NCBI GenBank assembly: GCA_037481835.1
Contig: JBBFKW010000001.1
Span: forward strand, 64,001-128,000
Direction: 5' to 3'
Origin: Desulfosoma sp.
GTDB lineage: Bacteria; Desulfobacterota; Syntrophobacteria; Syntrophobacterales; DSM-9756
Length of the DNA stretch: 64,000 nucleotides
A program made the position numbers and the translations under genes. Shown piece after piece: positions 1,983 to 55,061 of the stretch. Numbering within the stretch: the first letter of the stretch is position 1; each line of letters starts with the position of its first letter. A model generated the notes under the pieces. The model was given only the letters and a program-made list of their open reading frames with translations, did not search any database and was not told the DNA's origin.

Positions 1983-3808
1983 TGTACGGACAAATCCTCA
2001 CCTTCATCGTAGCCCTCGTGCTTTTTTCCCTGCAGGAACCGGGAAACGAGGCGTTGCGCCCCCCTGTGAAAACCCTGTCCCTGACGGTGCTGGTTTTCGC
2101 CGCCTTTGTCCTCCTGTGCGGGGTGCTTTTCGGCCGGTTGCGGGCGGCCTTGCTCAAAGGCGTCCCCCAGGATGTGGTGGCGGCCCGGTTTCACAGGCTC
2201 CAGGGGCGCCTTTCCGTCCTGGCCCTAGGGTTTCTCGCCCTGGACGTCTTCGCGCTCAATATCAAGGATTTTTTCCAATGGGTGCCGGGATTTTCCCGAT
2301 CTTCCACCGTCTCCGGCCTCGTGGGCTTGGCGCTCTATTTCCTGCACCTGGCGGCCATCTGGTTCTGGGCCTACCCGCTCCATCGTCGCTTGACCGGCAC
2401 AAGCGCGGGACGGGCGGCCTTTATGAAGGGGCATGTGAGCTTCTACACGGCGCTCCTTTTCCCGTGGTTTTTCATCGCCCTCGTGCTGGACGCGCTCCAA
2501 TGGATCCATCTGCCCGCCTTCTTCGCATCGGAACTGGGCCAAATCCTCCTGTTCGGCATGGTCTTCAGCCTCTTTCTGTGCCTTTCCCCCCCCGTCATCG
2601 TCCGGTTCTGGAGATGCCGGCCCATGCCCGAATCCGCCCTTCGAAGCCGCTTGGAAGACTTTTGCCGATCCCAACGGTTTCGGCTCGGGGGTTTTTTGCT
2701 GTGGCCCCTTTACGGCGGTGACCATTTTTCGGCGGCCGTCCTCGGGATCCTGCCCCGGTTCCGATACATCCTCATCACCCAAAGCCTCCTGAACCTCCTG
2801 AACCTGGAAGAACTCAAAGCCGTCGTCGCCCATGAAATGGGCCACGTCAAGCGCTTCCACGCCCTGTTTTATTTGACGCTCTTCCTTGCCTACGCCGCCG
2901 CATCCTACGCTTTCCACGACATCGTGCTCCTGGCTTTCCTGAAGCAGAAATGGGCGCTGCAATGGGCGCTGTCCAAGGACACCGTGGCCCGCAATCTTTT
3001 CAGCCTCACCTACAGCATTCCGGTCCTGGCCCTGCTGGTCCTGTACTTTCGCTACCTCTTCGGCTACTTCATGCGCACGTGCGAACGCCAGGCCGACCTG
3101 TTTGCCCTGAAAACCCTGGGAGACCCTGTACCCCTGGTCTCGTCCCTGCAAAAGATCGCCTTCCACAGCGGGCGCATCGAGGATCTGCCCAGTTGGCATC
3201 ATTACAGCATCCGCGAACGGATCCACATGCTTCTCGCCGCCGCCGCCGACCCGGCACTCATTGCGGCACACGATCGGAAACTGCTGCGCTCCGCCGCCGT
3301 GTTCTTCCTGGGCCTCGGGGTGCTCATCCACGGCGCCGTCCAGTTTCGCCATTCGGAAAGGGCGCAGGCCTGGCGCCAGGATATTCAGCTCCACATCCTG
3401 GAAGCGGAACTCCAGCTGGACGAAAAACGACCGGAACTCTACATGGCCTACAGCGGGCTGCTCATGCAGCGGCAGCGCTACCACTACGCGCGGCTCATTT
3501 TGGAAAAAGGGCTGCGCCTCGCCCCGAACCATCCGGGGATCCAAAACAATTTGGCCTGGCTTTACGCCACGGCTCCGGCACCTTACCGAAACCCGCAAAG
3601 GGCCTTGGAACTGGCGGAAAAAGCCGCCGCCCAACAGCCGGACCCCTATATTTTGGATACCCTGGCGGAAGCCTACTACGTGAACGGCCGCTACGAAGAG
3701 GCTCTGGCGGCCATCCGGCGGGCCATCGCCCAGAAGCCGGAAAAGGTTTTCTATTATCTCGAGCAGGAAAAGAAGTTTCTGGACGCTTTGGAAAAGGAGA
3801 GGCGGTAG
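1982..3808 (+). CDS. M48 family membrane zinc metallopeptidase with C-terminal TPR repeats
   Basis: Multiple TM segments, HEMGH zinc motif, ERQAD motif, TPR-like NNLAWLY and LDTLAEAYY. Confidence 0.88.
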   Translation: MYGQILTFIVALVLFSLQEPGNEALRPPVKTLSLTVLVFAAFVLLCGVLFGRLRAALLKGVPQDVVAARFHRLQGRLSVLALGFLALDVFALNIKDFFQWVPGFSRSSTVSGLVGLALYFLHLAAIWFWAYPLHRRLTGTSAGRAAFMKGHVSFYTALLFPWFFIALVLDALQWIHLPAFFASELGQILLFGMVFSLFLCLSPPVIVRFWRCRPMPESALRSRLEDFCRSQRFRLGGFLLWPLYGGDHFSAAVLGILPRFRYILITQSLLNLLNLEELKAVVAHEMGHVKRFHALFYLTLFLAYAAASYAFHDIVLLAFLKQKWALQWALSKDTVARNLFSLTYSIPVLALLVLYFRYLFGYFMRTCERQADLFALKTLGDPVPLVSSLQKIAFHSGRIEDLPSWHHYSIRERIHMLLAAAADPALIAAHDRKLLRSAAVFFLGLGVLIHGAVQFRHSERAQAWRQDIQLHILEAELQLDEKRPELYMAYSGLLMQRQRYHYARLILEKGLRLAPNHPGIQNNLAWLYATAPAPYRNPQRALELAEKAAAQQPDPYILDTLAEAYYVNGRYEEALAAIRRAIAQKPEKVFYYLEQEKKFLDALEKERR

Positions 3809-3821
3809 GGCCGGCCCGGGT

Positions 3822-3980
3822 CAGGGGTTGGGACACTGGGCGTTGGGGGTTGAGGGTTGGCGGTCGGATCTTGGGGGTTGGGAGCTGGGGGTTGGGGGGA
3901 TTGGGACTTGAGGGTTGTGGGAATTGGGACTTGGTTGTTGGGGGAATTGGGACTTGAGGGTTGGGGTTCGTTGTTGGGTT
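3822..3980. repeat. G-rich low-complexity tract of TTGGG(G/A) units
   Basis: Many TTGGGG/TTGGGA units; ttgggacttgagggttg occurs twice. Confidence 0.7.
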
Positions 3981-4009
3981 TCGTACGACGCCTCGTCTTT
4001 GCCGGAATG

Positions 4010-40832: not shown

Positions 40833-41780
40833 GGTTCATCCGGCTAATGAGTACCTCTGATTGTGCAGATGGTAGACGTGGAGACGGAAATAGTCCATGC
40901 CCCTGAAGCCATAGGCTTGACGTTTGAGCGTTTTGATTTTGTTGACCAGCCCTTTTAACGGGCCGTTGGTGCTGCGGTGATGGAAGTCGTTGAGCAAGGC
41001 TGTCTTGTAGGCGGCCAAGGTCTTGCCGGCCTTCATCAGATGCTTGATGCCGGAAGCCATTGTGTCGCGGCACCAAGTTTCCATGAATTTTCCGGCACTG
41101 GCCGCGTTGTCCTTTTCCCAGAAGACTCTGAGTTGCTCCTTCATGCTATGAATGATGTAGAGCGGCTGGTTCACTTCCACCAATTGCTCAAGTCTCGCCC
41201 GCCCGTCGTCGTCGAGGGATTCGTAGGTAGTGTAAATCAGATTGTGTAATTTCGCAGAGGGTAGAAAAAGGGCGCTTTTCCTTTACATCAGGTTGGTCAC
41301 CACAACCACGCCGGAGAAAGGAGAAGCGACCATGGAAATTAAGATCAGTGTGCCAGAAGTGGTCAGCATTTTCAAAGAGATTCAAACGGCTCCCGAAAGG
41401 ATCTTTGAGATCATCCGTGCCGATCTCAGGCAGAGCGTAGGAAATTACCTCAGTGAGCTCATGAACGTGGAATTCAGCCAGTTCCTGGGCCGATAGCCCT
41501 GTGAGAAAAAGGAAGTTTAAGCCAGCACAACGCGCCGCATCGCAGGCACTTCATGCGGAGATATTGGATGGCCAAATAACAACTTTTAGTCTCATAGGCC
41601 CCATCAGAAGACGCCGCGTTTTGCTTCCCTTGAAGACCACTTCCCGGTGGCCACATTCCGGGCACTTGTGCAAACTGCGATTCAGCCGAGCCCTGAAGAC
41701 GACTGTAGAACCCACATACTCCGTCGCTTGATAGGTGATTGCCTTCAGTCCGAAAGCGTGGTAAAGAATAGATGTGGATA
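40833..41780 (-). mobile_element. Degenerate ISL3-family element (internally deleted, interrupted by an IS256 fragment)
   Basis: C-terminus STNGPLKGLVNKIKTLKRQAYGFR (40836-41183); N-terminus (I)STSILYHAFG...CPECG from ~41780; end CCGGATGAACC next to an A-tract. Confidence 0.8.
41226..41496 (+). mobile_element. IS256-family left-end fragment
   Basis: GGTAGTGTAAATC terminus then MEIKISVPEVV...YLSELMNVEFSQFLGR, truncated. Confidence 0.6.
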
Positions 41781-45727: not shown

Positions 45728-46424
45728 TTACCCAGCCGTCACCGACTCAAGTTTGACCTCCACTGATACCCGGCCTTTCTTCTCCTTGGCAAGAGCTTTC
45801 TCTCCTATAGGGCGACTCGCAGACTGAACCAACCTTGCGTCTACTGCAATCCCTTCATTTGAGACCCTGCTACGAAAACGAGAAAAGGTCGAATGGTCAG
45901 GAGTCGGCTTGTCTAGGGCAAGCCGCAAAAATTTTTTGAACGATCTCCGGTCAGTGATCTGGTTCTCAAGCTCAGGGCCGGAGGGAATCCGAAAGCACTT
46001 TCGCAACAGCCATGCCTTGAGCAATATCAACGGGGGATACGCATCGGCCTCTCCCTTACTCCGCTCCTCACGACCTTGTAGTGCTCTATCAACAGGGCCA
46101 CGGTGTTCCTCCAATTAACCACGTCGTCAGTGCGCTTCATCATCCGAAGGCTTCGGTCCTGTCACAGGGATTTCCTTGCCGCCAGATCGGCGAAACTCAG
46201 AGTGTGTCCTTGCCTCTACTATCCGATGGCTTCCCCGTTGGCGGTAATCTCTTTTAAACTAAAGCATAACATGCTTTGAAGCATTATGAAAGTAATTTCA
46301 GAATATTAGGCCTAGTATCTTGTGTACGTATTTCGGGGCGGTTCGACTGCTTCGGTTAGCGACATTTATTCCGGTGAGCAACGCCCCGGAGGTGACATAC
46401 ACCCTCAGGTTGCGCAAAGGTCTC
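45728..46424 (-). mobile_element. IS5-family transposase remnant with left terminal repeat
   Basis: AYPPLILLKAWLL...ELENQITDR.SF..FL...PDHSTFSRFR, VDARLV; minus-strand terminus GAGACCTTTGCGCA starting at 46424. Confidence 0.75.
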
Positions 46425-46513
46425 TTGTTCACCTGCCGAAACTAACATAACCCTCAAAGAGGTGCCGAACCGGGATCATAAGATTGCTCTTGGAAAGGGA
46501 TGCGAAGTGCACT

Positions 46514-48139
46514 TCACAGGCCCTGCAATGCATCAAGAACCCGGGCTTGGGCTGTTTGCGCCATGTACGGCCCGAAGGGAAGGCTGAAGACCGTTCGCGA
46601 GGCTTCTTCGGCGACGGGGAAGTCGCCCGGGCGGTAGCCAAGGGAGGCGAAGGCGCCCTGTAGATGCAGGGGCTTCGGATAATAGACCGCCGTGGGAACG
46701 CCCGCTTTCTTCAGCCGATCCATGAGGATGGATCGCGTGTGCGGGTCCTTGGCCCGCACCGTGTACTGGGCCCAGGCGGACAGCGAGCCTTCCGGGACAA
46801 CGGGAGGCGTCAGCGCTCCGTCCAGGGCCCGCAGCCCTTCGGTGTAGCGGGCGGCGACGTCCTGGCGGGCTTGAAGCTCGGCGGGGAAGGCTTCGAACTT
46901 GGCCTGGAGGATGGCCGCCTGGAGCGTGTCCAGCCGGGCGTTCAGGCCGATCCGCACGTTGTCGTACTTGTCCGTTCCCTTGCCGTGAACCACAAGGGAA
47001 CGACACACGTCCGCGATGTCGTCCCGGTCCGTAAAGACCATGCCACCGTCCCCGTAGCCTCCCAGGGGCTTCGCCGGAAAGAAGCTCGTCGCCCCCACGT
47101 CCCCGAGGGATCCCGCCTTTCGGCCCTTGTATTCGGCGCCGAAGGACTGGGCCGCATCCTCAATGAGAAAGAGACCGTGTTCTTCACACACGGCCCGCAA
47201 GGCGTCGTAGTCCGCCGGAAGTCCATAAAGGTCCACGGCGATCATCCCTCGAGGCCGAAGTTTCTTGTACGCCTCGCCCCGGGGCAGCGGGTGGAGGTCC
47301 GCACGACCGTCCCGGAGGGCCCGCACGGCCCGGTCCGCCGACCCCGGGTCCATGTTGTAGGTCTCGGGGTCGATGTCCGCAAAGACGGGGACCGCCCCGA
47401 GAAGGGCAATGACTTCCGCCGTCGCGATGAAGGTGAAAGGGGTCGTCACCACCGCATCGCCGGGACCCACGCCGTAGGCCATGAGCGCCAAAAGAAGGGC
47501 GTCGGTGCCGGAACTGCAGCCCACGGCGTGTTTGACTCCGACGTAATCCGCCACGGCCCTTTCCAATCGCGCCACTTCCGGGCCCAGAATATATCGGCCG
47601 TGATGCAACACGGTATGGATCCCCTCTTCGAGGCGCGGCCGGATCGCGTCCTGCTGGGCCTTCAGGTCCATGAACTCCAAGGGGGAAGCCTTTTCCCCGA
47701 GGCGCAAGAAATCGACGGGGGAAACGGCGTCGGGGCACTTTGCAAGCACGGCGGCGTCGCGGGTGAGCAGCCGAATCGTTCCCGGAGCAAAACGCCTTAA
47801 GGCCCGAATCAGTTGCTCGTCTTCCGGATCGTCGGCCCCGTACACATCCCCTTCCCCCGAAAGCGCCGCCAGCCAGTGCATGTCCTTGGCCAGTTCCCGG
47901 AGAAGTTCACGGGTCCGATGAGACACCTGTCGCGGAGTGGGGAAAATCCCCTGCTTCGCCCATTGCCGGCAGAGTTCCGAGCGCGTGACGTATTCCAGGG
48001 TCTGGACACTTCCCGCATAGAGCCACACCCGGCCGCCTTGAGCCCGACACGCGGCCACGGCGTCCCGCACCACCTGGAAATGGGGTTCCCGCCCCGTGCA
48101 GAGATCCACCGCAACATTGACATCCAACAGGAGATCCAT
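46514..48139 (-). CDS. PIN-domain / WbpE-type DegT aminotransferase fusion
   Basis: Residues ~1-150 PIN-like (LLDVNVAVD, DDPED, LLTRD); then EFMDLKAQQ, SSGTDAL, EDAAQSFG, SFFPAKPLGGYGDGG. Confidence 0.85.
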   Translation of the reverse strand: MDLLLDVNVAVDLCTGREPHFQVVRDAVAACRAQGGRVWLYAGSVQTLEYVTRSELCRQWAKQGIFPTPRQVSHRTRELLRELAKDMHWLAALSGEGDVYGADDPEDEQLIRALRRFAPGTIRLLTRDAAVLAKCPDAVSPVDFLRLGEKASPLEFMDLKAQQDAIRPRLEEGIHTVLHHGRYILGPEVARLERAVADYVGVKHAVGCSSGTDALLLALMAYGVGPGDAVVTTPFTFIATAEVIALLGAVPVFADIDPETYNMDPGSADRAVRALRDGRADLHPLPRGEAYKKLRPRGMIAVDLYGLPADYDALRAVCEEHGLFLIEDAAQSFGAEYKGRKAGSLGDVGATSFFPAKPLGGYGDGGMVFTDRDDIADVCRSLVVHGKGTDKYDNVRIGLNARLDTLQAAILQAKFEAFPAELQARQDVAARYTEGLRALDGALTPPVVPEGSLSAWAQYTVRAKDPHTRSILMDRLKKAGVPTAVYYPKPLHLQGAFASLGYRPGDFPVAEEASRTVFSLPFGPYMAQTAQARVLDALQGL

Positions 48140-48142
48140 CTT

Positions 48143-48448
48143 TCACCGGTCCTCTCTCATGGCAAAAGCCCGAATGCGTTCCCACTCTTTTTCGTTCACG
48201 GCCGGAAGTTCTTCGTCCGGAGGAAACGCCGCACGGCGCACGGCTTCCAATCGGCTTTGCATCTCTTCAGCGATGCGCCGGGCTTCCCCGCTCAGGGTAT
48301 AGGGCTCGGCGGGGGCCGCTTTGTCCTGTTCTTCCTCGGGCTCCAGCGCCTCTTCGGGAATGGAAAGCACCACCCGAGACCTTTTCAAGGAAATCTCCCG
48401 CAAGGGCTTGAAAACACCGTCTTCCCACAGGGCTTCGATCTCTATCAT
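48143..48448 (-). CDS. Antitoxin-like protein (AF2212/DUF104 family)
   Basis: [14 protein letters not shown]-terminus; directly upstream of the PIN fusion. Confidence 0.75.
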
Positions 48449-50172
48449 GTTTCCGTCCTATGCGTCGTTTCGTCTTCGATCCGTTCCAGGCCTTCGCCTT
48501 TTTGAACATAGCGTTTTCCGCACGAGGAACACACCCACTCCTCGGGGAGGCGTTCCCCGCACTCGCACGCCCAGCCGATCCGCCGGGCCGGATTGCCCAC
48601 CACCAGGGCATGGTCGGGAACGTTTCGGGTGACCACGGCCCCGGCCCCCACGAAGGCGTATCGGCCGATGGTCACGCCGCAGACGATGGTGCAGTTGGCT
48701 CCCAGGGTCGCTCCGGCCTTCACCAGGGTGGGCCGCACCTGGTCCATCTTGCGGATGGCGGCCCGGGGATTGTAGATGTTCGTAAAGACCATGGACGGCC
48801 CGCAAAACACGTAGTCTTCCAGGGTGACTCCTTTGTAAACCGACACGTTGTTCTGGATGCGGCAGCCTCTGCCGATGGTGACATCGGGGCCGATGACCAC
48901 GTTCTGGCCGATGTTGCAACCTTCCCCGATGACCGTCCCGGAAAGGATATGGGAAAAATGCCAGACGGCCGTCCCGTCGCCGATCTGAACCCCATCGTCC
49001 ACGACGGCCGTGGGGTGGATGCGCACTCGGCCCGATGCGGAAACGGACGGGGAGGCGGGCTGCGGGGCGGCACTGACGGCGGTCCCTGGGGTGGCGGCGG
49101 GCATGCGGGTGCACCCCGATTCCAGGGAGCGTTGGGCCAGGTTCAGGATGCGAAGGACCTTCAAGCCTTCGCGGCCGTCGGTTCGAGGGCGGGCGCCGTC
49201 CCGCACGCAGCGGAGGAAGTGTTCGCATTCCACCTTGAGCGGTTCGGCTTCGACCACATCCACCCGTTCGGGGTCGGCCTTGGCCGGCACGGGGACGTTG
49301 TTTTCCCAGCGGATTTCGTGGGGGTAAAGAAGGAGCTTTTCCGGCCAGGGGCGCGTGTCGTCGAAGACGGCCATCTTTCGGTCCCCCACCACCACGAGCT
49401 GCTGCACCTTGAAGGGGTGAAGCCAGGAGACGAAAATGTGGGCGCGAAGCCCGGAGGGGAATTCCAGATGGGTCGTCGTCACGTCGGCGATCTTGCGGTG
49501 CAGGTAATTGCCGCCCGTGGCCCAGACGGCTTCGGGGTCTTCCGCCGCCAGGGCCAGGATCATGGAAATGTCGTGGGGGGCGAAGGACCACAGCGCGTTT
49601 TCTTCCCGGCGGATCTTTCCCAGGTTGAGGCGATGGGAATAGATGTAGTTGATCCGGCCGAGGTCTCCCGAAGCGGCCAGGTCCTTGAGCTTGACGAAGG
49701 CGGGGTGGTAGTGGAGAAGGTGTCCCACCATGAGGGTCAGGCGCCGATCGTCGGCCAGGGCGATGAGCTCGTGCGCTTCGCCTTCGTCCAAGACCAAGGG
49801 CTTTTCCACATAGACGTGCTTTCCCGCAAGGAGCGCTTCCCGGGCCAGGCGGAAGTGCGTTTCCGCAGGTGTGGCGACAACGAGGGCCGAGATGTCGTCC
49901 CGTTCCAGGACGGCGGGAAGGGAGAGAGCGGTGGCGACGTCCGGGTAAAGATGGCGGTAGTGGGCGAGCAGGGTTTCGTTGGTGTCGCAGATGAGCTTCA
50001 AGGCCCCCAGGGCGTGATAGTTCCGCACGAGATTCTTCCCCCAGTACCCGCAGCCGATGACGGCCACAGCGGGGGGATCCTGGGTTGCCGGGAGGGGTGA
50101 TGGGGCTAGGGATTGCACCTGGGGCGACTTTTCCATGGGGGGACTGACCTCCATTTTCCGGCGAATGTCCAT
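48445..50172 (-). CDS. Gfo/Idh/MocA oxidoreductase - N-acetyltransferase fusion (WbpB-WbpD-like)
   Basis: GCGYWG, EKP, HDIS; then [36 protein letters not shown]; start uncertain. Confidence 0.9.
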
Positions 50173-50259
50173 GGGCTGGGTAGGGTCAAGGGACGACTTC
50201 CGAGAGCACTTTTATGAAATGAGAACATGCCTGCGCCTTTCGGCGAAAAAGCATCTCCC

Positions 50260-50694
50260 TTCACCCGTGGGCGGGCCTACGCCTGAGGGCGGGTGCACGG
50301 AAGGACGCAGGGGGCATCCTGGGGGGTGTATTCGGGAACCAAGGTTTTCAGGGCGCGGCGGACGGCGGCGGCGTCCTGGGCCAGGGCCGCGGCCACCAGG
50401 TCCTGGAGTTCCCGGGAAAACCGGGGTGAAGACGATGTCCACGTCCACGCCGGGGCGCTTTCCGCACAATCGAATGAGGTCCCGGGCCATGTCGGCGATG
50501 CGCACCGGGGTGCCCATTTCCAGGACGAAGATCTCGCCCCCGCGGCCCAGGGTCGCCGCCTGCAAGATGAGCTGGGCCGCTTCGGGAATGGTCATGAAAT
50601 ACCGGGTGACCTGCGGGTGGGTGACCGTCACGGGCCCGCCCCGCTCGATCTGCTTCGTAAAGAGCGGGATGACGGATCCCGACGAGCCGATGAC
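50260..50694 (-). pseudogene. Duplicated, internally deleted 3' end of the PglF/CapD-like gene
   Basis: Near-identical to 52809-53380 but lacking ~135 bp, frameshifted. Confidence 0.9.
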
Positions 50695-50908
50695 CAAGAA
50701 CTCACGAGCGGCTACTGCTGTGTGAAAAAGAACAAATCAGCCGTGTCACCTCTACACTATCTTGTTTCCACGCCCTTATGTGATATCTTCAACTCACAGC
50801 ACTCTCTTCCAGCAAAGAGAGTTCTCTCCTGTGCCGGAAACGGTGTCGCCCAAGATGGCAACGGATCTCATTGTCCACTGCCCTATTACAAACGGACAGG
50901 ACACTTCC

Positions 50909-51152
50909 AACCGCTGCATACCCGCGCCGCCTTCTGGGCGTGCGATCCCGAGCCGACCTCCCAATTCACGTCGGGCCGTGGCAGCTCCAGCTCGTCGAAG
51001 AACACCTGCGACATGTTGGCCTCGTAGTGCCGGCCCGTATGCACGAGAACCTGCTCAAAGGTCTCCGGATGCTGCGCCATTTCGTGCATGGTCGGCGCGA
51101 TCTTCATAAAGTTGGGCCGCGCGCCCACGACGTGAAGGAAGCGTTGTTTCAT
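50909..51152 (-). pseudogene. N-terminal fragment of a second UDP-GlcNAc 2-epimerase
   Basis: VVGARPNFMKIAP, HTGRHY, GSGSHA; truncated at an IS256-like end (GGAAGTGTCC on the minus strand, ~50908). Confidence 0.8.
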
Positions 51153-51218
51153 GGCCGCCATGTCAACCCCGCTACGACCATCCGGCAAACACGGCTACTC
51201 TCGTCGCTTCGCATGCCA

Positions 51219-51719
51219 TCAGAGATCCGTTTCTTTACTCTCTTGCAGAAGCTGGCTAAACAAATCCGCGCGAATATGAAAGCCGGCCCTTTGCCGCAAT
51301 TCCTCCATCGCTGCGCGTAGCGACGACAATCTCCCCTCACGTCGTGCCCGCAAGAGGATGCCCAAGACGCCAACGACCTTCAGCCCCAGGGATTTGGCAA
51401 CCCGTCGCCCCTCCCGCTCATCCAACAACGTCCACTCCGCCTGCATCTGGACCGCCAACGCGATGGCTTCGGCTTCACCTCGATCCAGCTCACGCTGAAG
51501 CACCCGAGCCAGCGCCCGCTCTCTCACCTCTTCGACTCGAAGCCATCCTTTCTCCAACGCCTCTCTTACCGCCGCAGAACCGGGCAGACTCTCTTCAACG
51601 CGCAGCTCCTCCACCACCCCCACCGGAATCCACACCTCGCCGAACTGCTCACGCAGCAAGGGAAGCTGTCCGATAATCGCCAGGTTCAAAAGGGGCGAGG
51701 TGTTACTCACCACGGGCAT
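51219..51719 (-). CDS. DUF3368 family PIN-like toxin
   Basis: VVSNTSPL, LDRGEAEAIALA, LDEREGR, GVLGIL. Confidence 0.88.
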   Translation of the reverse strand: MPVVSNTSPLLNLAIIGQLPLLREQFGEVWIPVGVVEELRVEESLPGSAAVREALEKGWLRVEEVRERALARVLQRELDRGEAEAIALAVQMQAEWTLLDEREGRRVAKSLGLKVVGVLGILLRARREGRLSSLRAAMEELRQRAGFHIRADLFSQLLQESKETDL

Positions 51720-51957
51720 ACATGAGATCGTCCTCCATCTCCTCCTGTCCGTAGTGCCGCAGGATGCCTTGCTCCCCTAATCGTCGGCCAAACTCGTATT
51801 TTCCAAGTCCTGCCAGCTCTGCGGCCTTACCCAACGACAAAAGCCCCCTGGCATATAAAGCCACGGCTAGCTCCACCAGGAGCTCTTGGGCCATGCGCTC
51901 TTCCGGTAGACGAATTGCCTGAACAATGGCATCGGGAATCTGCAATTGTACGCTCAT
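51703..51957 (-). CDS. UPF0175 family putative antitoxin
   Basis: ELAVALY...LSLGKAAELAG; overlaps the DUF3368 start. Confidence 0.85.
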   Translation of the reverse strand: MSVQLQIPDAIVQAIRLPEERMAQELLVELAVALYARGLLSLGKAAELAGLGKYEFGRRLGEQGILRHYGQEEMEDDLMYARGE

Positions 51958-52146: not shown

Positions 52147-52374
52147 TCAGGCAGGAATCATCTCAGCGGGCGAGGGAATGAGCGCCACTTCAAATTGCAG
52201 CTTGTGTTGCAATACCTCAGAAGCATCCAGCACTTCGATGCCGATCAGCCTACCCTGCCTGTCAAAATCGGCATGTACGCCAGGTGACACGGTTTCGGTC
52301 TTCGCCGCTTTCTCACCTACAGGGCCCAACCAGATATACAACAAGTCCCGCAAAGGGTCATATTCAATCTTCAT
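52147..52374 (-). CDS. DUF2283 family protein
   Basis: MKIEYDP..DLLYI...ADFD..GRLIGIEVLDAS. Confidence 0.85.
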   Translation of the reverse strand: MKIEYDPLRDLLYIWLGPVGEKAAKTETVSPGVHADFDRQGRLIGIEVLDASEVLQHKLQFEVALIPSPAEMIPA

Positions 52375-52598
52375 TTCGCTCCCCTCCGCGGAAAACGATG
52401 CCCATAACGAGCCTTCGTCGTCAATAAGATAATCCCTTCATCGGTGACCTTGTAGTACACCGTCACCTCTTTCTCCTGATAGAATTGCCCTTCCCATTCC
52501 GCCGCGGAGTCAAACACCATAACTTTCCCTGCCGTACCCGGTTTGACATCACTGGCTTCCCAACCAAGGGTTTCTTTTCGCGGCAAAACTACTCGCAC
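52371..52598 (-). CDS. DUF4258-like small protein, probably N-terminally truncated
   Basis: Coupled to DUF2283; W.G..Y..KEVTVYY...IILLTTKARYG. Confidence 0.45.
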   Translation of the reverse strand: MRVVLPRKETLGWEASDVKPGTAGKVMVFDSAAEWEGQFYQEKEVTVYYKVTDEGIILLTTKARYGHRFPRRGAK

Positions 52599-52613
52599 AA
52601 GGCTCAGCCAGCC

Positions 52614-52808
52614 TCAGGCCGAGAACGCCCCAGCGGGCAAGGGCATGAGCATCACCTCACATTGCAGCTTGTGTTGCAACATCTCAGAAGCATCCAGCAC
52701 TTCGATGCCGATCAGCTTACCCTGCCTTTCAAAATCAGCATGTACACCCGGTGTCGCGGTTTCGGTCTTGGCCGCTTTCTCACCCTTAGGGCCAAACCAG
52801 ATATACAT
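52614..52808 (-). pseudogene. Second, N-terminally truncated DUF2283 copy
   Basis: MYIWFGPKGEKAAKTET...GKLIGIEVLDASE, highly similar to 52147-52374. Confidence 0.75.
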
Positions 52809-52825
52809 TTCACCCGCGGGCGGGC

Positions 52826-54787
52826 CTAAGGCTGAGGCCTCGTGCACGGAAGGACGCAGGGAGAATCCTGGGGGGTGTATTCGGGAACCAAGGTTTTCAG
52901 GGCGCGGCGGACGGCGGCGGCGTCCTGGGCCAGAGCTGCGTCCACCAGGTCCTGGAGTTCCCGGGAAAACCGGGTGGGGAAATCTTCCCCCGGCGCCCCG
53001 GAGCCGTTTCCGTTGGGACGAAGGACCAGGATCTTTTCGTGGGCCGTGTGCTCGATCCCTTCATCGTGGGTGATGAGTTCCTCGTAGAGCTTCTCCCCTT
53101 CCCGAAGGCCGGTGAAGACGATGTCCACGTCCTCGCCGGGGCGCTTTCCGCACAATCGGATGAGGTCCCGGGCCATGTCGGCGATGCGCACCGGGGTGCC
53201 CATTTCCAGGACGAAGATCTCGCCCCCGCGGCCCAGGGTCGCCGCCTGCAAGATGAGCTGGGCCGCTTCGGGAATGGTCATGAAATACCGGGTGACCTGC
53301 GGGTGGGTGACCGTCACGGGCCCGCCCCGCTCGATCTGCTTCGTAAAGAGCGGGATGACGGATCCCGACGAGCCGATGACGTTTCCGAACCGCACGGCCA
53401 TGAAACGCGTTTCCCCGCCCCGTTCGTGATACGTGCGCAACAAGAGCTCCGCCGTCCTCTTGCTCGCCCCCATGACGTTGGTGGGCCGAACGGCCTTGTC
53501 CGTGGACACCAACACGAAGCGCTCCGCACCGTACCGGGCCGCGAGATCCATCACGACCCGGCTTCCCAAGACGTTGTTGAAGACCGCCTCCCAGGGGTTC
53601 AGTTCCAGCATGGGCACGTGCTTGTAGGCCGCCGCGTGGAAGACCACCGCGGGCTCGTAGGTCAAAAAGATCTTTTCCATGAGCGGCTCGTTTTGCACCC
53701 GGGTCAAGAAACAGCGGTACGACCGGAAACCGACGCCGTGCTGCAGCTCCATCTGGATCTCGTAGAGGTTCGCCTCGCCCGCATCCACCAGGACGAGAAG
53801 GCTCGGGGAGAATTTGACCAGCTGCCGGATGAGTTCCGAGCCGATGGATCCCCCGGCCCCCGTGACCAAAACGCATTTCCCGCCCACGCACCGCCGGATC
53901 CCCTCCAGGTCCAAAGACACGGGAGGCCGGCCCAGAAGATCCTGGTAATTGACGTCCCGCAGGTTCCGGACACTCACCTTGCCGTTCATGAGGGCCCCGA
54001 TGGCCGGAAGGGTCCTGTAGGGAACGCCGCACGCCTTGCACAGATCCACAACGCGGCGCATCTCCCGGCCCGAAGCCGACGGCATGGCGATGAAGATTTC
54101 CCGGACGAAGAACCGCTCCGCCACCTCCGCGACGGCATCCACCGGCCCGAGCACGGGAACGCCGTGGAGGGTGCGGCCGTGCTTTCCGGGATCGTCGTCC
54201 AGAAAACCCGCCACATGGTAGTTCAGGGACGGATTGTCCAGGATTTCCCGAAGCATCTTTTCCCCGGCCTGGCCCGCGCCGATGATGAGGACGCACTTGC
54301 CATTGTTGCCGGGTCTGCGCCGCACGGGGACCGGCAGCCCCACGCACACCTGGCTCCCGGACCGGGACGCGTACCAGTTGCGGACGAAACCTCGAAGGCC
54401 GCTGCACAGGACGAAGGTGAGCACCGCATCCAGGACGAAAACCGCTCGGGAAAGGCCCTGGAAGCGCGACGTGTACACGAGAACCACGGACGTCATGGAA
54501 AAGGACGCCGCCACGGCCAGGCCCAGGCGCCACAGGTCCAGAAGGCTGAAAAACCGCCACATCCCCCGGTAAAGGCCCAGGGCCATGAAAAACGCCAGCT
54601 TGAGCGGGATCATCCAGGCAAGGAGCCGGCCCATTTCGCTCAGGTGCGGCTCGAGCTGGAACTCGAAGCGCAAGGCGTAGGCCCCCGCAAGGGCCGCGGC
54701 ACAACACGCGCTGTCGGCCGCCACCATGACGTAAAAGTTGGGGTTCCTCAGCGAAAACAAGGTAAAAGGGCGAACCGGGCGCGCCAT
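52826..54787 (-). CDS. UDP-GlcNAc 4,6-dehydratase (PglF/WbpM/CapD family)
   Basis: N-terminal TMs, GAGQAG, TGAGGSIGSE, HAAAYKHVP, STDKAVRPTNVMGASK, RFGNVIGSSGS. Confidence 0.93.
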   Translation of the reverse strand: MARPVRPFTLFSLRNPNFYVMVAADSACCAAALAGAYALRFEFQLEPHLSEMGRLLAWMIPLKLAFFMALGLYRGMWRFFSLLDLWRLGLAVAASFSMTSVVLVYTSRFQGLSRAVFVLDAVLTFVLCSGLRGFVRNWYASRSGSQVCVGLPVPVRRRPGNNGKCVLIIGAGQAGEKMLREILDNPSLNYHVAGFLDDDPGKHGRTLHGVPVLGPVDAVAEVAERFFVREIFIAMPSASGREMRRVVDLCKACGVPYRTLPAIGALMNGKVSVRNLRDVNYQDLLGRPPVSLDLEGIRRCVGGKCVLVTGAGGSIGSELIRQLVKFSPSLLVLVDAGEANLYEIQMELQHGVGFRSYRCFLTRVQNEPLMEKIFLTYEPAVVFHAAAYKHVPMLELNPWEAVFNNVLGSRVVMDLAARYGAERFVLVSTDKAVRPTNVMGASKRTAELLLRTYHERGGETRFMAVRFGNVIGSSGSVIPLFTKQIERGGPVTVTHPQVTRYFMTIPEAAQLILQAATLGRGGEIFVLEMGTPVRIADMARDLIRLCGKRPGEDVDIVFTGLREGEKLYEELITHDEGIEHTAHEKILVLRPNGNGSGAPGEDFPTRFSRELQDLVDAALAQDAAAVRRALKTLVPEYTPQDSPCVLPCTRPQP

Positions 54788-55061
54788 GGAAGCCTCCCCC
54801 CCCCGCGGATCTTCGTCGGCGAAGACAGAGCTTCGCCAACTCGGTTCCACCGAGGCCCTAGAGCATCACATCCAGGTGGGGCGAAAAATCCCGATCATTT
54901 TACTTCGCTTTAACTCCCTGAACTTGTTTGCTATATAGGAAAAGAAACACACAGCGTCAAGAACTTTTCTTTTTGACGGGCTTTCGGCCAAAATATTGAC
55001 GATCCGGGGGGGCCTCCCTGCGGCGGGAGGGGGAAGCCCCGGGCCGAGGGGGACGTGGGCG

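Follow-up and report, generated by a model that had tools for sequence, protein, structure and literature searches.

A VapC-like PIN domain fused to a WbpE-type aminotransferase and accompanied by an antitoxin-like small gene in a nucleotide-sugar operon of Desulfosoma sp.

Three tightly packed genes on the minus strand of a 64,000-nucleotide (nt) stretch of the Desulfosoma sp. assembly GCA_037481835.1 (contig JBBFKW010000001.1, positions 64,001 to 128,000; this whole stretch is called the window below, and coordinates are window positions) join a domain resembling VapC-type toxins to an enzyme of nucleotide-sugar biosynthesis (Table 1). The first gene, an open reading frame (ORF) of 575 amino acids (aa), matches Pfam GFO_IDH_MocA (E 2.2e-18) and Hexapep (E 1.5e-21) and is thus WbpB-like and WbpD-like; it also matches the NCBIfam model for uridine diphosphate (UDP)-GlcNAc 3-dehydrogenase with an E-value of 1.5e-39, which lies under that model's cut-off. 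Next comes a small VapB-like gene, and then a 541-aa ORF (46514-48139) in which an N-terminal PIN domain continues in frame into an aminotransferase. The 575-aa ORF ends in a TGA that overlaps the start codon (ATG) of the small gene (tcat at 48445-48448 on the plus strand, ATGA on the minus strand), and the small gene's own TGA (48143-48145) is situated 3 nt ahead of the ATG of the fusion gene (48137-48139). This arrangement agrees in its coordinates with a first-pass annotation of the same DNA, which had described a small gene overlapping the wbpB-wbpD stop codon and ending 3 bp before the 541-aa ORF.

Table 1. Features of the fusion locus, with their positions in the window
Feature	Position	Strand	Content or basis
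wbpB-wbpD fusion gene, 575 aa	48445..50172	minus	GFO/IDH/MocA 3-dehydrogenase domain and hexapeptide N-acetyltransferase domain
Small VapB-like gene, 101 aa	48143..48448	minus	N-terminal AF2212/AbrB-like domain, acidic linker, helical C-terminal half
3-nt spacer between small-gene stop and fusion-gene ATG	48140..48142	minus	
PIN (VapC-like) domain, fusion residues 1-153	47681..48139	minus	AF2 model, VapC fold matches, hhalign, conservation
WbpE-type DegT/PLP aminotransferase domain, residues 154-541 and stop codon	46514..47680	minus	Pfam DegT, WbpE 3nyu
TTG codon (Leu154), proposed internal start, not supported	47678..47680	minus	

Judged by its sequence, the larger part of the fusion protein, residues 154-541, is a complete WbpE-type DegT aminotransferase. 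The Pfam profile DegT_DnrJ_EryC1 is matched by residues 171-539 (profile positions 8-360 of 360, E 3.4e-107), and residues 154-535 align with chain residues 2-353 of Pseudomonas aeruginosa WbpE (PDB 3nyu; E 1e-101). We found 47 solved DegT homologues, all of which begin at fusion residue 154 and none of which has an N-terminal PIN domain. Lysine K357, which we take to be the residue that binds pyridoxal phosphate (PLP), lies in the motif S352-F-F-P-x-K357 and is invariant across 49 aligned fusion proteins. For the fusion protein every NCBIfam aminotransferase equivalog stays under its cut-off, so that the exact substrate has to be deduced from the WbpE match and the neighbouring genes; on these grounds the enzyme would probably catalyse the 3-amination on the route to UDP-2,3-diacetamido-2,3-dideoxy-glucuronate/mannuronate. 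The first-pass annotation had spoken of a needed biosynthetic step, which goes too far: the same genome encodes on another contig (G000:C3:143716-144864) a second, apparently unfused WbpE-type gene with an open frame of 444 aa that is 60% identical to the DegT part, and it holds five strong DegT paralogues. In relatives, too, the WbpE-type genes carry no fusion; their identity to the query is 51-63%.

The N-terminal 153 residues of the fusion protein form a VapC-type PIN domain, apparently of the PIN_3 branch. A search of PDB sequences with a profile of this N-terminal domain (N-domain) returned nothing significant (best E 0.22), which made a fold search necessary. An AlphaFold2 (AF2) model of residues 1-160, computed with 20 homologues, reached a predicted local distance difference test score (pLDDT) of 90.2 and a predicted template modelling score (pTM) of 0.83, and shows the alternation of strands and helices typical of PIN domains. 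Foldseek searches with this model gave VapC toxins or PIN proteins as all of the best PDB matches, and in VIA-align the VapC proteins of Pyrobaculum, M. tuberculosis, Rickettsia, Caulobacter and Shigella as well as FitB were matched at Z 10-11.5, with 114-127 residues aligned at a root mean square deviation of 2.5-3.2 A. When the N-domain profile was run over 1.84 billion representative proteins, it recovered its own family first (33 proteins at E<=1e-30, 92 at E<=1e-10) and reached free-standing proteins of 130-170 aa only at E>1e-6; five of six such free-standing relatives tested are PIN_3 proteins above the Pfam cut-off. A profile-profile comparison of the N-domain with free-standing PIN_3 proteins by hhalign gave 99.7% and E 1e-25 over 131 columns, pairing D6 with the invariant Asp, DPEDE (104-108) with D.ED and LLTRD (124-128) with ILTR[DN].

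The acidic residues of this domain are strongly conserved. Across 117 aligned fusion proteins D6, D12, E96, Q109 and R127 are invariant or nearly so, and D104, E106, D107, E108, T126 and D128 are conserved in at least 97%. The full set of conserved positions comprises D6, N8, D12, C14, R17, C31, W39, Y41, GSVQT 43-47, W89, E96, G97, DPEDEQ 104-109, R116, F117 and TRD 126-128; a candidate for the usual second acidic residue of PIN domains is E49, the position of which is uncertain. Mean pairwise identity is 58% for the N-domain and 61% for the enzyme domain (6786 pairs), that is, both are about equally conserved. The first-pass annotation had seen a PIN-like N-terminus with retained acidic residues and had proposed a profile or structure search of it; both kinds of search recover the PIN fold, and the AF2 model, the VapC fold matches and the hhalign result bear the earlier reading out. 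Apart from the acidic positions, the two cysteines C14 and C31 (window about 48047-48100) are present in 96% and 99% of the 117 fusion proteins, respectively; in forms with a decayed acidic motif C31 is often replaced by Ala and C14 is mostly kept. A disulfide or a metal ligand are possibilities for their role.

Among the fold matches is also the cyclodehydratase RohQ (9oq8, 9c5w; Z 9.5-9.6), a reminder by analogy that this fold may be able to carry small-molecule chemistry. One could accordingly imagine a small molecule or nucleotide sugar, and not RNA, as the target of the PIN-like domain, which would bind the diphosphate of the UDP-sugar through its metal site or carry out an extra step, with the small protein as a regulatory subunit; the constant fusion of the domain to one particular enzyme of sugar-nucleotide metabolism would fit this idea. 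We consider it improbable, though, as all the nearest structural matches are VapC toxins, the nearest relatives by sequence all belong to PIN_3 and the partner protein is antitoxin-like; moreover, we know of no missing step in the WbpE pathway that such an activity would fill.

The fusion is genuine and widespread. Residues 1-160 match 262 proteins (clusters) of 297-947 aa at E<=1e-3, and 116 of the best 120 of these are 500-590 aa long and carry DegT. A survey with one genome per species, a step the first-pass annotation had suggested, yielded 77 loci. In 57 of these the fused ORF is unbroken over 500 aa or more, in 10 it reaches the end of a contig and in 10 it stops early. Carriers occur among the Beta- and Gammaproteobacteria (Accumulibacter, Competibacter, Thiothrix, Chromatiaceae, Methylomicrobium, Crenothrix, Gallionella, Rhodoferax) and beyond the Proteobacteria in Thermodesulfobacteriota, Verrucomicrobiota and Kiritimatiellia; the N-domain was not found in three searched genomes of the same genus and five of the same family as the window. 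Cultured carriers include Thiothrix lacustris DSM 21227 and Desulfoferrobacter suflitae (loci L014 and L009). In public records the fusion proteins bear no label other than DegT aminotransferase and the small gene is called 'hypothetical protein', so that surveys based on annotation miss the feature.

Independent sequence data also cross the junction. The stretch is covered by contigs of four public DNA runs, two of which may be the source of the window; the other two are hot-spring metagenome runs of one other study, and their contigs carry a strain variant of the fusion. One of these contigs, 2288 nt long, differs over 46458-48600 by 49 substitutions and 0 gaps, and the other, of 1472 nt, differs over 47285-48600 by 20 substitutions and likewise no gap. 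The variant fusion protein again has 541 aa, with 17 amino-acid differences of which 2 fall within the first 153 residues, and the variant small protein has 1 difference. An assembly or sequencing artefact, against which the first-pass annotation had advised a check, is rejected on account of these indel-free strain-variant contigs, the 262 protein matches and the 77 species loci, and its central claim of an in-frame PIN fusion to a complete WbpE-type enzyme stands.

A fusion that is real in the DNA could still be only apparent in the protein if an internal start yielded a free-standing WbpE. The first-pass annotation had proposed such a start at the TTG of position 47680, preceded by a hairpin; the codon and the GGGGAA...TTCCCC stem are both present in the sequence, an in-frame ATG (Met157) with GGAG 3 nt upstream follows, and the solved WbpE structures begin at this very point. 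The codon is not conserved, however: it reads CTG in both strain-variant contigs (runs X3 and X4; 47680 A>G on the plus strand), and position 154 is occupied in 117 family sequences by I in 66, L in 31 and M in 10, while Met at 157 is found in 4 of 117 fusion proteins. The 91-nt region of junction and hairpin folds no better than shuffled sequences (z +1.19; 176 of 200 shuffles at least as stable). For these reasons an internal TTG start with hairpin was rejected as a conserved feature, and there is a small possibility, suggested by the sequence, of a start at Met157 in this organism alone. With contigs of two further runs spanning the junction without indel and 57 of 77 species loci holding an uninterrupted ORF, the reading as an artefact or split protein is largely excluded, and we regard it as very improbable.

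On a FastTree phylogeny of DegT domains (61 fused, 25 unfused) the fused label changes 4 times, compared with 21.8 times when labels are shuffled; a single origin of the fusion is possible on this tree but not demonstrated by it, since all unfused sequences were drawn from the order of the window and the tree is unrooted. Two WbpE-type genes of the window's order (L120 and L121, genomes G009 and G015) have an N-terminal extension of about 170 residues which a small local search showed to be faintly PIN-like (E 3e-3 and 8e-5) and in which most motif residues are missing; together with loci L081-L083 they form one starred clade on this tree. The fusion gene L060, from a metagenome-assembled genome labelled Klebsiella pneumoniae, groups tightly with those of environmental Pseudomonadota (L042, L058), and the label may be wrong.

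The small gene upstream appears to be an AbrB/AF2212-type, antitoxin-like partner of the fusion, an assignment supported by sequence comparison. Its product matches the Pfam profile AF2212-like (PF01954) with residues 4-32 (profile positions 5-34 of 59, E 2.4e-5, 25.1 bits against a cut-off of 21.6); 5 of 27 homologues of the small protein reach this profile at E<=0.01, and NCBIfam holds no family for it. In passages of an earlier paper, COG2880/AF2212 proteins are treated as AbrB-like antitoxins encoded beside PIN genes (PMC2701414). The small protein consists of a conserved AbrB-like head (residues ~1-35, M-x-V-E-A-I-Y-x-x-G-R-L-E-F ... V-P-D), a variable acidic linker and a conserved, helical C-terminal half (~48-101, R-L-D-x-I-R-x-A-P-L-P-P-D ... 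E-R-I-x-A-F-x-L-R-E-D-R), the window's copy ending in AFAMREDR. Its family comprises 127 clusters, nearly all labelled hypothetical; 2 of them are labelled 'predicted DNA-binding antitoxin AbrB/MazE fold protein'.

In 68 of 77 loci a hidden Markov model (HMM) of the small protein matches the frame that directly precedes the fusion gene; the gap between the two is mostly 2-5 nt. A wbpD homologue, by comparison, lies within 450 nt upstream in 34 of the 66 loci with room for it and within 4 kb in 43 of 66. The small gene is hence a far more constant upstream neighbour than wbpD, which was rejected as an invariable one. With a Pfam match above cut-off and a homologue upstream in most loci, the antitoxin-type gene of the DUF104/AF2212 kind that the first-pass annotation had placed here is supported. 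In one gammaproteobacterial locus (L057:3295-3995) there are apparently two tandem copies of the small gene ahead of the fusion gene, with tblastn matches at 3304-3648 and 3657-3995 and an HMM match on the frame 3295-3657.

Structure modelling supports binding of the small protein to the PIN domain as a prediction. A complex model of the two scored 0.84, compared with 0.00 for the best of three controls, a mark that is reached by 58 of 80 solved complexes and by 2 of 110 mismatched pairs. The partner has a pLDDT of at least 72, and the runs share at least 80% of contacts. In the modelled interface, residues 48-96 of the small protein, that is, its conserved C-terminal half, would contact PIN residues 13-16, 23-33, 50-56, 67-86 and 142-149.

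Where the small gene is missing, the acidic motif has decayed. We scored 12 PIN positions (D6, N8, D12, D/E104, P105, E106, D/E107, E108, Q109, T/S126, R127, D128). At least 11 of these 12 residues are present in 42 of the 47 complete fusions with the small gene; none of the 12 complete fusions without it reaches that number, their scores ranging from 3 to 10 with D6 lost in 7. The small gene is absent from 9 of the 77 loci, and four fusion genes of relatives within the order of the window lack it as well. Fusions that are about as diverged overall but have the small gene (43-44% identical; for example L041, L045, L056, L060) keep the motif. The DegT-domain tree calls for at least 5 and at most 9 losses of the small gene, and among independent pairs the motif follows the small gene in about 4 of 5 and never the opposite way. 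Loss of the motif alongside loss of the small gene argues that acidic site and small protein are mutually dependent, and with the co-occurrence in 68 of 77 loci and the modelled binding, the pair behaves as one unit. The decayed forms are still fused, and W39, Y41, G43, W89, G97 and R116 persist in them. A locus of Halochromatium (L062:3878-3997) has its small gene cut to an ORF of 39 aa ending in AFNHREER, with 10 of 12 residues of the PIN motif intact; a phosphatidyltransferase-like membrane gene lies upstream.

We favour, with somewhat better than even confidence, the reading that a VapBC-derived pair in working order has been built into the WbpE-type enzyme of a nucleotide-sugar operon. 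Its role is left open by this reading, active toxin, regulator and scaffold all being candidates; nuclease activity, toxicity, neutralisation and biological purpose of the pair are what we infer. According to this reading the small protein would be translated just before the fusion protein, across the 3-nt spacer, and both would be made together. Its conserved C-terminal half would then clamp the PIN helices and keep a metal-dependent nuclease site (D6, E106/D107, D128) silent. With nuclease and enzyme in one polypeptide, the dose of nuclease would track expression of the operon, and recombination could not part the two, tying inheritance of the nuclease to that of WbpE. Loss or degradation of the small protein would release ribonuclease (RNase) activity and slow growth, which would stabilise the cassette or tie growth to it.

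A further, unlikely but conceivable variant is that of a moonlighting enzyme, in which the aminotransferase, through its oligomeric state or its occupancy by substrate or PLP, would switch the RNase domain together with the small partner, such that flux through the sugar pathway would control the cleavage of specific RNAs, for example its own mRNA or a tRNA. Where this control has been lost, the PIN domain would survive as a structural part of the enzyme only. If it were true, a toxin-antitoxin (TA) pair would here have been turned into metabolic feedback of a new kind.

A number of observations weigh against a working VapBC-derived pair. The Pfam PIN_3 match of the 541-aa protein is weak (residues 3-60, E 0.014, 16.6 bits against a cut-off of 27), and no family of PADLOC-DB 2.0, a collection of models for anti-phage defence systems, was matched at E<=0.01 by the fusion protein, by its PIN domain taken separately or by the small protein. 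The complex model places no part of the small protein with confidence on active-site residues, and since VapBC complexes have already been solved, passing the modelling test demonstrates likeness to them and not binding as such. The pair is embedded in the operon: the ATGA overlap leaves no intergenic region before the small gene, and a crude scan of 46200-50600 found 0 sigma-70-like sites where 0.7 were expected, so that, as far as such a scan can tell, the pair lacks the autoregulated promoter of classical TA systems. This suggests that it is not a purely selfish TA module, with an internal or non-sigma-70 promoter being possible. The co-decay of motif and small gene, for its part, did not reach significance in a sign test (5 independent pairs on well-supported branches, median p 0.125), which five pairs do not allow, and it is equally expected if the acidic residues are a mere docking surface. 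Finally, 12 of 59 complete fusions retain the PIN domain without the small gene and with decayed acidic residues, and L120 and L121 retain their barely recognisable N-terminal extension. That the domain is kept after decay indicates that it probably has an additional, nuclease-independent and structural role in the enzyme, and a full-length model of the fusion, which is rigid at a pLDDT of 94.4 and a pTM of 0.89, fits such structural integration.

The same observations lead to an alternative in which the module has been domesticated and is not toxic. The VapB-VapC contact would be reused as an assembly or regulatory device, the acidic residues being conserved for docking; the PIN domain would serve as a structural or oligomerisation domain, and the AbrB-like head of the small protein would bridge PIN domains or tether the enzyme to DNA or to WbpB/WbpD. 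WbpB and WbpE are biochemically coupled through the recycling of 2-oxoglutarate and NAD+. Embedding of the pair in an operon without intergenic region or promoter-like site, persistence of the PIN domain beyond the decay of its acidic residues and the confident, rigid two-domain model all speak for this alternative, as do the conservation of the N-domain, which equals that of the enzyme domain, and that of the AbrB-like N-terminal part of the small protein itself. We nevertheless hold it to be doubtful, though well possible. Nearly all fusions accompanied by the small gene keep D6, E106/D107, D128, D12 and N8, which exceeds what a docking surface would usually demand, and the confidently predicted contacts are located on helices 23-33 and 67-86, off the acidic motif. 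In addition, adjacency of wbpD in 34 of 66 loci means that a fixed partnership with WbpB/WbpD is not general. The co-decay itself fits both a TA pair and a domesticated module.

The surroundings of the cassette bear traces of mobility. Transposase fragments lie within the polysaccharide locus at 40836-41183 (ISL3-type DDE, E 3.5e-25) and, directly downstream of the fusion gene, at 45728-46114 (DUF772, E 1.5e-18), and the upstream flank of the cassette holds fragments of Polysacc_synt_2 (50212-50697) and Epimerase_2 (50886-51188) genes. Such fragments on both sides fit a horizontal arrival of the cassette. The 161-aa ORF at 50212-50697 duplicates the C-terminal part of a 674-aa Polysacc_synt_2 gene (52826-54850), with long identical stretches in translation. 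Just upstream of the cassette, also on the minus strand, there is a second TA-like cluster (51219-51957 and 52147-52847). It includes a DUF3368 (PIN-like) gene at 51219-51719 (Pfam E 1.1e-11), the start of which overlaps an 84-aa ORF (51703-51957), as well as a pair of similar ORFs of 75-77 aa (52147-52374 and 52614-52847) and a 75-aa ORF (52371-52598). As this cluster and the Epimerase_2 fragment are situated between the two copies of Polysacc_synt_2, an insertion with duplication is suggested.

TA pairs are normally free-standing, fast-evolving and selfish. Here, in contrast, a VapC-type domain with an intact active-site motif forms one polypeptide with a surface-glycan enzyme and is as conserved as that enzyme, with an antidote-like gene alongside. 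At least 77 species from several phyla share this arrangement, among them Thiothrix, Accumulibacter, Competibacter, purple sulfur bacteria, methanotrophs and sulfate reducers. Should the nuclease be active, the fusion would exemplify how a toxin can become locked to a useful gene in nature, with a bearing on the retention of horizontally moving polysaccharide cassettes and on the recruitment of TA parts for metabolic control. Should it be inactive, we would be dealing with a clear case of a TA interface reused as a subunit contact of an enzyme.

Full-text literature searches turned up no paper that describes a fusion of PIN with DegT or WbpE. In the main text of a classification of PIN domains (PMC5499597) 'DegT' is absent and 'aminotransferase' stands for MocR regulators; its supplementary tables might list the architecture. 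All components of the locus are of known kinds, and what is new is their architecture, its breadth and the pattern of co-decay.

The closest known relatives of the three parts make this clear. The small protein resembles AF2212/COG2880 (DUF104) proteins in its N-terminal ~30 residues, which match PF01954 above the cut-off, but the match covers only half of the profile, and the dedicated conserved C-terminal half and the family of 127 clusters are its own. The enzyme part corresponds to P. aeruginosa WbpE, the UDP-2-acetamido-2-deoxy-3-oxo-glucuronate aminotransferase (PDB 3nyu, 3nu7, 3nys), in the alignment of residues 154-535, in the invariant putative PLP lysine K357 and in the wbpB- and wbpD-like genes that adjoin the fusion gene; WbpE, however, starts at what is residue 154 of the fusion and lacks the N-terminal PIN domain. 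With VapBC systems of the PIN_3 (PF13470) branch and their kin, such as VapBC2 of R. felis (3zvk), VapBC of Shigella (3tnd) and FitAB (2bsq), the fusion shares the PIN fold (Z 10-11.5) and the acidic residues, which align with PIN_3 proteins, and also a small upstream gene whose product combines an AbrB-like head with a C-terminal toxin-binding half, binding through that half being predicted here by the complex model. Unlike in these systems, the toxin-like domain is not a free protein of 130 aa but the N-terminus of a metabolic enzyme of 541 aa, and its family is distant from free-standing PIN proteins (E>1e-6 in a library of 1.8 billion proteins). Whereas classical pairs autoregulate their own promoter, the fusion pair is located inside a biosynthetic operon without a promoter region, and the fused PIN domain persists even after decay of its catalytic motif.

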